DNA of 64,000 nt from a phage, in the NCBI GenBank assembly GCA_021537435.1, contig GCA_021537435.1_3050.1; one strand, written 5' to 3'. The notes under the pieces are model-generated. The model did not search any database. It was not told the DNA's origin and saw only the letters and a list, made by a program, of their open reading frames with translations. The position numbers and the translations under genes are program-made. Of the stretch, positions 16,750 through 61,620 are shown in pieces (position 1 is the stretch's first letter; the number at the start of each line of letters is the position of its first letter).

Positions 16750-17765
16750 CATTATGTTCAGATAAGGTCGTTAATCTTACCCCGGAATTATATCCAGCTG
16801 CATGTCACCATGCAGATCAGACTATATCTCCAACTTGTTAAAGCAAGTTGTCTATCGTTTCGAGTCACTTGACCCTACTCCCCAAAGGGATAGTCGTTAG
16901 GCATTTATGTAGAACCAATTCCATTTATCAGATTTTACACGATAAGTAACTAATCCAGACGAAATTTTAAAATGTCTAGCTGCATCTGCTGCACAATCAA
17001 AAATAACCCCATCACATGAAATCTTTTTAATATTACTAGGCTTTTTACCTTTCATCTTTTCTGATATTTTAGATTTAGTTATGTCTGAATGCTTATGATT
17101 AAAGAATGAATTATTTTCACCTGAACGATTTCTGCATTTACTACAAGTATAAGCAGAAGTTTGTATGCGAACACCGCACTTACAAAACTTATGGGTTTCT
17201 GGATTCCAACGCCCGTTTTTACTTCCGGGTTTACTGTAAAGAGCTTTCCGACCATCAGGTCCAAGTTTAAGCATCTTAGCTTTAACAGTTTTAGAACGTT
17301 TCTTAATAATTTCTTCTTTTAATGGATGCGTAGAACATGTATCACCAAACGTTGCATCAGCAATATTGTATCCATTAATTTTAGAATTAAGCTCTTTAAT
17401 CCAAAAATTTTCTCGTTCAATAATCAAATCTTTCTCATATGGAATTTCTTCCAAAATAGAACATTCAAACACATTACCATGTTTGTTAAAAGACCTCTGA
17501 AGCTTTATAGAAGAATGGCATCCTTTTTCTAAATCTTTAAAATGCCTCTTCCATCTCTTTTCAAAATCTTTAGCACTTCCTACATATACTTTATTGTTTA
17601 AAGTATTTTTAATCTGATAAATTCCGCTTTTCATAAATACCTCTTTAAATATAGAAGTATTTATTAAAGGGCAGTCCTACAATTTAGCACGGGATTGTCT
17701 ACTAGAGAGGTTCCCCGTTTAGATAGATTACAAGTATAAGTCACCTTATACTCAGGCCTCAATTA
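16750..17765 (-). mobile_element. group I self-splicing intron in td (1016 nt)
   Basis: 5' end UAAUUGAGGCCUGAGUAUAAGGUG and 3' end ...CUGAACAUAAUG match the recalled T4 td intron. Confidence 0.9.
16897..17634 (-). CDS. I-TevI: intron-encoded GIY-YIG homing endonuclease
   Basis: 245 aa, MKSGIYQIKNTLNNKVYVGSAKDFEKRWKRH..., matches recalled T4 I-TevI. Confidence 0.9.
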   Translation of the reverse strand: MKSGIYQIKNTLNNKVYVGSAKDFEKRWKRHFKDLEKGCHSSIKLQRSFNKHGNVFECSILEEIPYEKDLIIERENFWIKELNSKINGYNIADATFGDTCSTHPLKEEIIKKRSKTVKAKMLKLGPDGRKALYSKPGSKNGRWNPETHKFCKCGVRIQTSAYTCSKCRNRSGENNSFFNHKHSDITKSKISEKMKGKKPSNIKKISCDGVIFDCAADAARHFKISSGLVTYRVKSDKWNWFYINA

Positions 17766-18314
17766 ACCCAAGAAAACATCTACTGATCGTTGATACCACT
17801 GCAAATCCAAATAGCCATTACGCACATTAAACTGATAGAACATATGACAAGGCGGTAATGCCATATATTTAAGTTCAGCTGGATTCCACGCAGAAACAAT
17901 TTGTCGCCTATCATTCGGCAGTTTTTTAATACGATCAATAACTTCTATAATTTGGTCTACACCACCAAAATCACGCCATTGTTTTCCATAAATTGGACCA
18001 AGTTCACCGCTATGGTATCCTAAATCTTTTGCTTGATTTTCGTAATTTTCATCCCAGACTGTTTTGCCTTGAATTAATGAATCATGCTGAATTAATCGTA
18101 AATCATTGACATTCGTGCTTCCTGATAAAAACCATATTAACTCAGCAATGCAAGCTTTCCAAGCGAGCTTTTTAGTTGTTACTGCAGGAAAACCTTTGGT
18201 TAAATCCCAACGCAATTTAGTACCGAACAAAGCAATTGTTCCTGTGCCCGTTCGGTCATCGGTTTCATAGCCGTTTTCAAGAATGTCTTTAATTAAATCT
18301 TGGTATTGTTTCAT
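17766..18314 (-). CDS. td: thymidylate synthase, exon 1
   Basis: MKQYQDLIKDILENGYETDDRTGTGT... ends ...VDVFLG then intron. Confidence 0.9.
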
Positions 18315-58694: not shown

Positions 58695-58931
58695 TTAACC
58701 ACCTATTTCTGTAGGCGTAAACATTGCAGCATTCTTAGTTTTCCAAGTTGCTGCATCGGAAACTACATCAGAATAAGCTGCTTTTTCTGACGGAAAGATT
58801 TGATAATGAGAATCTGCAATACGGTGTTCATTTGAATATACATCAAATGCTACAGAAACTTCCATACCTTTAACTTCTTTGCCTTCACCTGCTGGATGAG
58901 TAAAGGTCTTGATGTTAACGAAACCACCCAT
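58695..58931 (-). CDS. soc: small outer capsid protein Soc candidate
   Basis: 78 aa; late promoter and AAGGAG SD upstream; position as T4 soc. Confidence 0.6.
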   Translation of the reverse strand: MGGFVNIKTFTHPAGEGKEVKGMEVSVAFDVYSNEHRIADSHYQIFPSEKAAYSDVVSDAATWKTKNAAMFTPTEIGG

Positions 58932-58962: not shown

Positions 58963-58970
58963 TATTTATA
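58963..58970 (-). promoter_or_regulatory. late promoter TATAAATA for soc
   Basis: Minus-strand TATAAATA about 30 nt upstream of the soc ATG. Confidence 0.6.
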
Positions 58971-58973
58971 TCA

Positions 58974-59492
58974 TCAATAACCTCGGTCTTGACGAGCGAA
59001 GTTTTCAGCATTTTTCAGATAATAAAGTTTAAAGATTTCTTCAGCCGTAAGACCGAGACCTTGGAACATGTTCAGAACGAAATGAAGAATATCAATCATT
59101 TCGAATTTAATTTCCAACTGGTCTTGTGGAGATAAGTCAGTAATCAGAGTTTCACGACGTTCACCGTGTTGCGACTTCCACGGCTTCCATACAGCAGATG
59201 CATCTTTTTCGCCATTGCTCATACCACCAAGAGAAGTCAGAAGTTCGCGGAATTCATCATCAATATAATCTTTCTGATTACGCAACCAATCAACAACTTC
59301 ACCTGCAGTAGCCAAATCATCAGGATGACGGTTATATTCAGGTTTATCTTTAGCTAAACGAACCTGCAGAGATTTCTGCATATCAAGCATAACCTGCAGC
59401 GGGTCTTTTTCATCACCGAGAATATCCCAGTATTCATTTTGAGCTTTATCAGCACCTTCGATCAGTTGACTACATTCGTTAAAGTATGCCAT
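58974..59492 (-). CDS. 56: dCTPase/dUTPase gp56 (MazG-like)
   Basis: 172 aa from MAYFNECSQ; ORF-track extension is hydrophobic and overlaps the promoter. Confidence 0.7.
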   Translation of the reverse strand: MAYFNECSQLIEGADKAQNEYWDILGDEKDPLQVMLDMQKSLQVRLAKDKPEYNRHPDDLATAGEVVDWLRNQKDYIDDEFRELLTSLGGMSNGEKDASAVWKPWKSQHGERRETLITDLSPQDQLEIKFEMIDILHFVLNMFQGLGLTAEEIFKLYYLKNAENFARQDRGY

Positions 59493-59521
59493 TATTTTTC
59501 CTTTCAATTCATGGGTTAGTA

Positions 59522-59551
59522 GATTAATTATACAATAAATATATAAAGCAA
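59522..59551 (-). promoter_or_regulatory. MotA-dependent middle promoter candidate for gene 56
   Basis: Minus strand: ATTGCTTTA, 13 nt, then TGTATAAT. Confidence 0.45.
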
Positions 59552-59563
59552 TAAGGAGGATAT

Positions 59564-59764
59564 ATGGTACAAAAATTAATGGCACTTGTTAATGCCATAA
59601 AAGGTAATAAAAAACGTATAGCTTTTACTATTTCTGCTATGGTAGGAATTTTACTCTGGAATTTTGTTTTATCACCAATTGCTATTGCTCATGGTGTTAA
59701 TATTCCAGTAATTACTCTTGATACATTCGTAGATTTAGCATTTGCTTTGGTTGGGTTAATTTAA
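59564..59764 (+). CDS. small two-helix membrane protein on the opposite strand
   Basis: 66 aa with AAGGAGG SD 4 nt before ATG; only plus-strand ORF in this early block not antisense to a gene body. Confidence 0.4.
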   Translation: MVQKLMALVNAIKGNKKRIAFTISAMVGILLWNFVLSPIAIAHGVNIPVITLDTFVDLAFALVGLI

Positions 59765-60789
59765 ATCTTAGCATATTTAGATAGCCGCATTTTAGCCATC
59801 AACCCTTGGGCAATATTATTTTTCATATATTCCATAATTTGTTCAGGGGTTGCACCTTCCTTTCTAATCATATCATTAACATCTTTTGATTTCCAGGGAG
59901 ATTTATCCCAAAACATAACCCTTTCTCCTGCATCAACTAATTTAGTCATTCGTTTAATAGTGTCAGGGTGACGAGGTTCATTATCTAAAACCCATACACG
60001 TCTATCTTTAAATGGAACAATTTCTAGGTCTAATTGACCACCCGTAATAGCTATACCATTTTCAATAAAAAGTGAATCTATAGGTCCTTCTAGAACATAT
60101 ACATCACCATCTTTGACTCGTTCAACTCCATAGATTTTTGTTGCCTCAGGATAAGCTTTGATGGTGATATATTTTTGAGGAGCATCTTTCTTTAATGCAC
60201 GTCCTTGAAAGGACTCGGCTTTTCCGTTAGCATTATAAATTGGAATAACAAGACGAGGCTCGGGCATTTCCTTTTTATATGTTCCTGGCGCTATACTATT
60301 AACTAATTTAGGCCATTCAGTTGTAAACCAAAGATATTTCCATTTATCCTTTGGAATACAACGAGCTTTTACATATTTTATAATTGGATGGTCTTCCGCC
60401 AGTTTATCTAATCTAATGCATGACGGAAGAGATTTAATTATTTTCTTCTCAGGTTGTTTAGGAAGTTCTTTAGGTTTTTCTACTGGACGACTTTTACCTT
60501 TTTCTTTTCTTATTTCAAAGATATATTCACGATATAAATCAGGTTCAAACTCCTTTAAATATATTCCGATTGGTGCATGATAGTTGCAGTTATAACAATG
60601 AATATTTCCTTCATTATTATCACCATAATACCATCCACGGGCTTTATTTTGGTCGGTTTTTGAATCTCCACAAACAGGGCATCTAAACCGTAATTTAAAA
60701 GTTGAACTATTATTTACTTGTACGAATTTAGGTAAATGAGCCAATGCACGGTATGCAAACTCATTATCAATCCAAGGTATTGATGACAT
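59761..60789 (-). CDS. 61: DNA primase gp61
   Basis: 342 aa, N-terminal zinc ribbon CPVCGDS ... CYNC and TOPRIM-like core. Confidence 0.9.
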   Translation of the reverse strand: MSSIPWIDNEFAYRALAHLPKFVQVNNSSTFKLRFRCPVCGDSKTDQNKARGWYYGDNNEGNIHCYNCNYHAPIGIYLKEFEPDLYREYIFEIRKEKGKSRPVEKPKELPKQPEKKIIKSLPSCIRLDKLAEDHPIIKYVKARCIPKDKWKYLWFTTEWPKLVNSIAPGTYKKEMPEPRLVIPIYNANGKAESFQGRALKKDAPQKYITIKAYPEATKIYGVERVKDGDVYVLEGPIDSLFIENGIAITGGQLDLEIVPFKDRRVWVLDNEPRHPDTIKRMTKLVDAGERVMFWDKSPWKSKDVNDMIRKEGATPEQIMEYMKNNIAQGLMAKMRLSKYAKI

Positions 60790-61326: not shown

Positions 61327-61620
61327 TTACTCACCTACCACTTCAGCGATGATATTTTTATTATTAAAGTTTTTATCGCAATACAGAACATAATTATACT
61401 GCATTACACCACCAGACTTAAGCTGTTTTTGTACTTCAGCTTTCATTTCAGGACGGTCACGCTCAACAATATTCATAATATCTGCTTCAATTTGAGTTTC
61501 AACTTCAGTCTGATCTGCAGTCATAGACCATTCACACAAATCTTTGTCATAACCCGCCATAGCAGGCTGAGCAGCACAAGAAGATAAAGCAAAAATTGTA
61601 GCAAAGATAAATTTTTTCAT
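61327..61620 (-). CDS. sp: spackle periplasmic protein
   Basis: 97 aa, signal peptide MKKFIFATIFALSSCAAQPAMA. Confidence 0.65.
   Translation of the reverse strand: MKKFIFATIFALSSCAAQPAMAGYDKDLCEWSMTADQTEVETQIEADIMNIVERDRPEMKAEVQKQLKSGGVMQYNYVLYCDKNFNNKNIIAEVVGE

Follow-up and report, generated by a model that had tools for sequence, protein, structure and literature searches.

The holin T of phage T4 has a demonstrated role in lysis, and RI (the antiholin), Imm and Sp are small T4 proteins active at the inner membrane or in the periplasm. The closest described relative of the gene considered here, a 66-codon open reading frame (ORF) between genes 56 and 61, is dam.1 of T4. Both genes lie on the same strand, overlap the stop codon of gene 61 by 4 nt and are preceded by a Shine-Dalgarno sequence and a NATAAATA box, and the ORF product is 95% identical to that of T4T dam.1 (T4Tp032, ADJ39749.1) over all 66 residues. 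T4 differs in that dam lies between dam.1 and gene 56 and in the late box, which reads GATAAATA; the present locus has no dam. A paralogous type, represented by JS98, occupies the same locus and strand, has the same length and predicted architecture, and shares the invariant Trp-Asn, Pro, Gly and Pro residues, but its transmembrane helix contains an Asp and its C-terminal tail is less hydrophobic. Holin T resembles what is predicted for the ORF product in being a single-pass inner-membrane protein of N-in/C-out topology, and its gene is, as is probable for the ORF, a plus-strand late gene headed by AATAAATA and AAGGAGG; with 218 residues and a large periplasmic domain, however, it shares no sequence similarity with the ORF product. 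Imm and Sp differ in being encoded by early genes on the other strand, and no similarity to Sp was found, the one of these small proteins that was compared (RI and Imm are encoded outside the DNA analyzed).

That DNA (the window) comprises 64,000 nucleotides of contig GCA_021537435.1_3050.1 from NCBI GenBank assembly GCA_021537435.1. It belongs to a Tequatrovirus, the region of interest being 98.9% identical to the Shigella phages ESh16 and pSs-1. Judged by its sequence, the ORF is orthologous to T4 dam.1 (RB32ORF030w, PHROG 2024), a gene that is conserved, as an accessory one, among T-even-type phages, and the reading that best explains the observations as a whole, to which a probability of roughly 0.55 is assigned, is that this ortholog encodes an accessory inner-membrane micro-protein produced late in infection. 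The gene is already known, as a catalogued hypothetical that is ordinary for this phage group: the identical protein is present in public databases on ∼100 contigs, and relatives label it hypothetical protein, RB32ORF030w or "putative membrane protein". As a discovery it carries little weight, the protein being listed as hypothetical in hundreds of T-even genomes.

Layout of the interval between genes 56 and 61

Encoded on the plus strand, the ORF diverges from gene 56 on its left and converges with gene 61 on its right (Table 1). The gap between the two genes, which the original prediction had put at only about 270 bp, measures 268 bp (59493–59760), and the 66-codon frame is present exactly where it had been placed. 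The proposed absence of segF between soc and gene 56 also proved correct, as soc (58695–58931) is separated from the boundary of gene 56 by 42 bp. Most of this spacer is filled by a perfect TATAAATA late promoter for soc (58963–58970, minus strand); in relatives, the soc–56 position holds segF or soc.1/soc.2.

Table 1. Positions of the features discussed (numbering of the window, unless a compared locus is named)
Feature	Position	Strand	Remarks
Gene 56 (dCTPase)	58974–59492	−	Left neighbor, divergent from the ORF; matches family models
Gene 61 (DNA primase)	59761–60789	−	Right neighbor, convergent with the ORF; matches family models
66-residue ORF, with stop codon	59564–59764	+	T4 dam.1/RB32ORF030w ortholog by sequence, PHROG 2024
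TTAA common to both convergent stops	59761–59764		ORF TAA 59762–59764; gene 61 TAA 59763→59761 (−)
Shine-Dalgarno AAGGAGG	59553–59559	+	4 nt before ATG
Putative late-promoter box AATAAATA	59534–59541	+	A(−13) variant of TATAAATA; ends 22 nt before ATG
Gene 56 middle-promoter candidate	59527–59550	−	MotA box TGCTTTA 59550→59544, 11 nt, −10 TATAAT 59532→59527
Hairpin, 8 bp (59598→59579), then UAAUUUUUGU	59569–59598	−	Terminator-like; 160 nt downstream of gene 61, ORF codons 6–12
Predicted transmembrane helix, codons 19–42	59618–59689	+	Carries family-invariant W32, N33, P38
Slot between gene 56 and ORF, window	59493–59563		Empty
Slot in compared loci	L004 1609–2388; L007 780–1430; L017 (F48) 1191–1472; L018 (IME523) 1169–1453; L022 676–1654		

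Other parts of the original prediction had to be given up. The ORF had been described as antisense to an early transcription unit; its overlap with that unit amounts to 4 bp, and neither coding region is opposed. Nor is the arrangement unusual, as had been thought: ∼690 sequenced phages from at least eight genera share it, and T4 late genes are found on either strand (PMC2988020). Finally, the ORF had been taken to sit where T4 carries dam. The gene order in T4T is 56, dam, dam.1 (plus strand), 61, and Bas37 also carries both genes. As dam and dam.1 stand side by side in T4T, the ORF is no stand-in for dam.

T4-type dam was found at ≥90% identity in only 182 records, compared with ∼500 for the ORF, so that the compressed layout lacking dam looks to be the commoner one. 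Whereas the ORF is the constant element of the interval, what separates it from gene 56 varies: nothing is inserted in the window, T4 has dam in this slot, fPS-2 has a homing endonuclease, and F48 as well as IME523 have a MazG-like gene. The interval is thus of some interest as a fixed gene beside a plastic insertion slot. In Bas37, the slot holds an extra 186-nt ORF in addition to dam.

Conservation and distribution of the family

The AT-rich DNA of the window contains many ORFs of similar size. As 66 codons alone are within chance expectation in such DNA, the reality of this ORF rests on its conservation. In the tblastn search proposed with the original prediction, the ORF was found to be encoded in 693 phage records, with at least 80% of the query covered in 687 of them and ≥90% identity in ∼500. 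The protein matches phrog_2024 with an E value of 5.4e-31 (residues 2–66 against profile positions 1–65 of 65). For close pairs, dN/dS ranged between 0.07 and 0.23 (Nei-Gojobori counts), with a 5- to 10-fold excess of synonymous changes; between genera, synonymous sites were saturated and dN was 0.3–0.5 by the same method. Alignment of the family revealed five invariant residues (W32, N33, P38, G44 and P48). The ORF is thus very probably a real gene, and the proposal of a genuine gene for a small membrane protein is supported.

Two subfamilies can be distinguished, which are ∼23–39% identical to each other and match the same PHROG 2024 (annotated as function unknown). The dam.1-type is found in Tequatrovirus, Mosigvirus and Gaprivervirus, the JS98-type in Gaprivervirus, Dhakavirus, Marfavirus, Kanagawavirus, Mosugukvirus and Gelderlandvirus, and the family as a whole is recognizable at 25–50% identity across genera. 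In at least eight Tevenvirinae-like genera, the ORF keeps to one place, namely the plus strand of the 56–61 interval, where it runs toward the 3′ end of gene 61. The stop codons overlap by 4 nt in T4T, ST0, VR25, JS98, F48 and Bas37; the overlap extends to 21–24 nt in PM2 and IME523, and in CGG4-1 the genes are separated by a 2-nt gap. In the Gaprivervirus VR25, one copy of each subfamily is found in tandem ahead of gene 61 (2495–2692 and 2701–2901 of the VR25 locus), and the other genera keep one.

A profile search of 1.84 billion representative proteins returned seven hits, most of them family members or their fragments, the weakest being a 1255-residue protein (E 8.7e-4); the family is therefore narrow, yet broad inside the T-even group. 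No distant relative that could lend a function was among these proteins. A scan of IMG/VR yielded only seven loci. Pfam, NCBIfam and PADLOC gave no match besides a meaningless one to SspI (E 0.12), the profile search of PDB sequences returned only noise (E ≥ 0.086), and Rfam gave no match over 59300–59950. The Foldseek search against BFVD retrieved only family members, one of which bears the unreviewed name "Holin".

Transcription and translation signals around the ORF

The very strong Shine-Dalgarno sequence described earlier is present 4 nt before the start codon. AAGGAGG occurs three times in the 64-kb window, another copy preceding holin gene t (PF11031, 34244–34900), and a GGAG-type Shine-Dalgarno sequence precedes every ortholog. 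It is more than a piece of the minus-strand promoter, as T4 and Bas37 retain AAAGGAGG upstream of the gene even though dam, and no MotA box, adjoins it there.

The sole promoter-like element in front of the ORF is a late box, AATAAATA, the same that precedes holin gene t. Fifty T4 late-promoter sites comprise 32 with the perfect TATAAATA and nine with A at −13, which is the commonest variant (PMC2988020); in other T4-like phages, A or T is found at −13 (Nolan et al., PMC1524935). The box is kept upstream of the ORF in otherwise diverged DNA, NATAAATA being located 13–22 nt before the ATG in eight of nine genus-level representatives. It reads AATAAATA in the window, in ST0 (Mosigvirus) and in JS98 (Dhakavirus), CATAAATA in VR25 (Gaprivervirus) and, as the perfect version, TATAAATA in F48 (Marfavirus) and IME523 (Kanagawavirus). 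T4 and Bas37, both Tequatrovirus, have the rarer variant with G at −13 (GATAAATA), as does PM2 (Mosugukvirus); the box of CGG4-1 (Gelderlandvirus) deviates (ATTAAATA).

The core ATAAATA is depleted 2.5-fold on both strands of the window (15 observed versus 38.2 ± 6.3 expected from shuffles), which is consistent with selection against stray gp55 promoters. Eight copies are on the plus strand, and three of these sit 18–23 nt before a Shine-Dalgarno sequence and ATG. The genes so preceded are a 218-residue ORF at ∼29.4 kb, holin gene t and the 66-codon ORF. Elsewhere, at 17633–17664, a plus-strand ATAAATA box (CATAAATA) and a minus-strand one (AATAAATA) face each other, just upstream of a 245-residue minus-strand ORF whose N-terminus resembles a GIY-YIG (Seg-type) homing endonuclease.

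In T4, early and middle transcripts share one polarity, which corresponds to the minus strand here, and late transcripts can have either (Geiduschek and Kassavetis, PMC2988020). As the ORF lies on the strand not used by early and middle transcription, and as the late box is conserved, it is most likely a gp55-dependent late gene; on these sequence criteria, the assignment is considered probable. An mRNA with a short leader is predicted to start near 59547. The literature on dam.1, RB32ORF030w, T4 start mapping and ribosome profiling yielded no published observation of transcription of the ORF.

The same DNA carries, on the minus strand, the MotA box and −10 element that had been proposed as a middle promoter for gene 56. 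The minus strand of the window contains the combined pattern six times (1.2 expected), equivalent MotA boxes were recognized by eye upstream of gene 56 in ST0, VR25 and JS98, and the annotation of fPS-2 places a middle promoter at the same site. The late box and the middle-promoter candidate overlap on opposite strands; with dam being absent, the promoter region of the ORF doubles as that of gene 56. The position of the late box relative to the MotA box differs between genera, and no TGCTT-type MotA box was seen beside the late box of T4, which together indicate that the late and middle elements are independent of each other. Such overlapping, back-to-back middle and late promoters could serve as a small model for temporal promoter switching.

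A second minus-strand element, the hairpin followed by UAAUUUUUGU, lies within the ORF and is called a terminator by the annotators of fPS-2. It is weak (z = −1.4) and conserved only in Tequatrovirus, and is possibly a weak terminator ahead of the middle promoter of gene 56. This weakness and the absence of the hairpin outside Tequatrovirus led to its rejection as an explanation for why the ORF is conserved.

Predicted product and candidate roles

The product is predicted to be a single-pass inner-membrane protein of N-in/C-out topology with a short amphipathic C-terminal tail, based on hydropathy and charge as well as on a moderately confident AlphaFold2 model from a shallow alignment (mean pLDDT 76). 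The 19-residue Kyte-Doolittle mean is ∼2.0 for the ORF protein and 1.9–2.6 across the family, and the model contains helices at residues 2–12, 16–42 and 52–62. Residues preceding the transmembrane helix carry a net charge of +1 to +5 (+5 for the window protein), those following it one of 0 to −2; the positive N-terminus and the neutral or negative C-terminus lead to the predicted orientation. That the product is a membrane protein is considered highly likely. Of the "two-helix hydrophobic" protein originally described, a transmembrane helix at approximately residues 19–42 stands, whereas the second helix (52–62) is short and amphipathic and does not span the membrane, as judged from hydropathy and the model. 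The C-terminus is hydrophobic (…FVDLAFALVGLI) and has D53 and D57 as its sole charges beyond the helix; only in the dam.1-type subfamily and JS98 does the C-terminal stretch reach the hydropathy threshold. A hairpin of two transmembrane segments is not favored, as the C-terminal hydropathy is subthreshold in most JS98-type members and the AlphaFold2 helix comprises only 11 residues.

In the favored reading, RNA polymerase carrying gp55 would initiate late in infection at AATAAATA, as motif, conservation and strand suggest, and the resulting short-leader mRNA would be translated efficiently from AAGGAGG. The 66-residue product would insert into the inner membrane with its basic N-terminus in the cytoplasm, the helix spanning the membrane and the acidic, amphipathic tail of ∼24 residues facing the periplasm. 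The invariant Trp-Asn in the middle of the helix, together with Pro38, Gly44 and Pro48, points to the binding of another membrane protein rather than to an enzyme; the polar Trp-Asn face and the proline kink may allow the product to bind such a partner. Late in infection, the product could serve to fine-tune lysis or events at the envelope. This assignment is rather doubtful: its basis is timing, location and the expression signals shared with holin gene t, no similarity to holin T or Spackle was detected, the ORF is not adjacent to lysis genes, and the Bas37 transposon data have so far revealed no knockout phenotype. It is unlikely that a conserved late membrane micro-protein omitted from the T4 annotation is a missing modulator of lysis timing, lysis inhibition or envelope integrity, or that its late promoter is an antisense switch against the primase mRNA; if the protein did modulate lysis or the envelope, it would be a new component of a classic system.

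The transposon data come from the HIDEN-SEQ preprint, which describes saturating libraries of T4 and Bas37 (10.1101/2025.11.20.689424). Bas37 (phage KarlGJung, MZ501089) encodes a protein 100% identical to the ORF product, bas37_0144 (91945–92145, plus strand), the gene for which overlaps that for the primase by 4 nt. In the Bas37 table of the preprint, bas37_0144, hit at 20 of its 24 TA sites, is rated "Non-essential", and the endolysin gene and gene 56 are classed essential (10.1101/2025.11.20.689424). For three of the six host comparisons (K-12 versus CFT073 and two others), its log2FC values are +0.33, +0.20 and −0.28, with an adjusted p of 1 (10.1101/2025.11.20.689424). According to these tabulated data for the identical protein, plaque growth on E. 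coli K-12 does not require the gene. Counts of insertion mutants in rI and rIII of Bas37 are low in the K-12 reference library and higher on some clinical hosts; for the small ORF, the tables give no such shift.

Unlikely, but the strongest of the alternatives, is that the ∼42 N-terminal residues form a long cleavable signal peptide, with a basic n-region, an 18-residue h-region and a c-region S-P-I-A-I-A cut before H43, so that the product would be a free peptide of ∼24 residues in the periplasm or at the membrane surface. A motif compatible with signal peptidase I (Pro at −5, A/L at −3, A/T/S at −1, a residue other than Pro at +1 and an invariant Gly at +2) is kept in both subfamilies despite only ∼25% identity, the helix ending in P-x-(A/L)-x-(A/T/S) followed by (H/Q/N/K)-G, and Ala, Gly, Ser and Thr are fairly frequent in the transmembrane segment. 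However, the hydrophobic stretch has, with 24 residues, the length typical of an anchor and unlike that of a cleaved signal, AlphaFold2 models one continuous helix from residue 16 to 42, and the motif could simply be the helix end or a hinge.

The RNA, rather than the peptide, might also be the main product: a late transcript that continued into gene 61 and past it in antisense orientation would dampen the primase mRNA and early mRNAs at late times, or collide with early and middle transcription. The ORF and gene 61 do converge, with overlapping stop codons in most genera, no plus-strand intrinsic terminator was found before 63695, ∼3.9 kb downstream of the ORF, and both strands of T4 are transcribed at different times at several sites (PMC2988020). 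Nevertheless, purifying selection on the amino acids is strong, with residues invariant despite saturated synonymous sites, and selection on the protein excludes an exclusively RNA-based role as the main function. In addition, CGG4-1 has the ORF without overlap with gene 61, and Rho would probably stop an untranslated antisense RNA. Such a role is thus improbable as the main one; possibly, it coexists with that of the protein.

Equally improbable is a superinfection-exclusion or injection-blocking factor resembling Imm or Sp; an exclusion factor had been suggested in the original prediction, alongside a lysis-timing one. A small inner-membrane protein with a tail predicted to face the periplasm would suit this function, the ORF shares its early-region neighborhood with sp (61327–61620), and paralog swapping and tandem copies between genera are reminiscent of host-interaction genes. 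Yet exclusion must act within minutes, and only late transcription reaches the strand of the ORF (PMC2988020); there is neither similarity to Sp nor a PADLOC match, and the low dN/dS is unlike that of the usual arms-race gene.

Very improbable, in turn, is a holin or second holin, the name given in UniProt to the copy of phage OE5505. The product is small, its transmembrane helix contains a polar residue, and the late promoter and strong Shine-Dalgarno sequence are those of holin gene t. The window already encodes the T holin, though, and the ORF product has no charged C-terminal domain and is not encoded beside an endolysin; in the Bas37 screen, as tabulated, knockouts are fully viable and the endolysin is essential, and the label itself is an unreviewed database name.

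There is next to no probability that the ORF is a chance frame in DNA kept as the 3′ untranslated region and terminator of gene 61 and the promoter of gene 56, for although a minus-strand hairpin with a U-tract lies inside it and the annotations of T4 (NC_000866), JS98, F48 and IME523 omit it, the frame is intact in 687 of 693 records, the family is recognizable where the hairpin is not conserved, and the selection at the codon level evident from the synonymous excess refutes this explanation as far as sequence analysis can go.

The main practical interest of the preferred reading, a conserved dam.1 ortholog, lies in the T4 reference annotation, which lacks the gene. NC_000866 shows a 309-bp "intergenic" gap between dam and gene 61 (17626–17934) where dam.1 sits (17738–17938, plus strand), and the T4 table of HIDEN-SEQ and the CRISPRi-ART library use annotation without the ORF; because the reference omits it, gene lists from T4 omics and CRISPRi-ART do so, too. 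Elsewhere, the ORF is mislabeled "dCTP pyrophosphatase", "DNA packaging ATPase" or "Holin" (CGG41_026 of CGG4-1; the Klebsiella phages EI, VAC36 and SAKp28; OE5505). In phage DK-13 (MT611523.1, 105188–105359), the match to the JS98-type ORF is split in two and lies under a feature labeled "homing endonuclease"; this copy could be either disrupted or misannotated.
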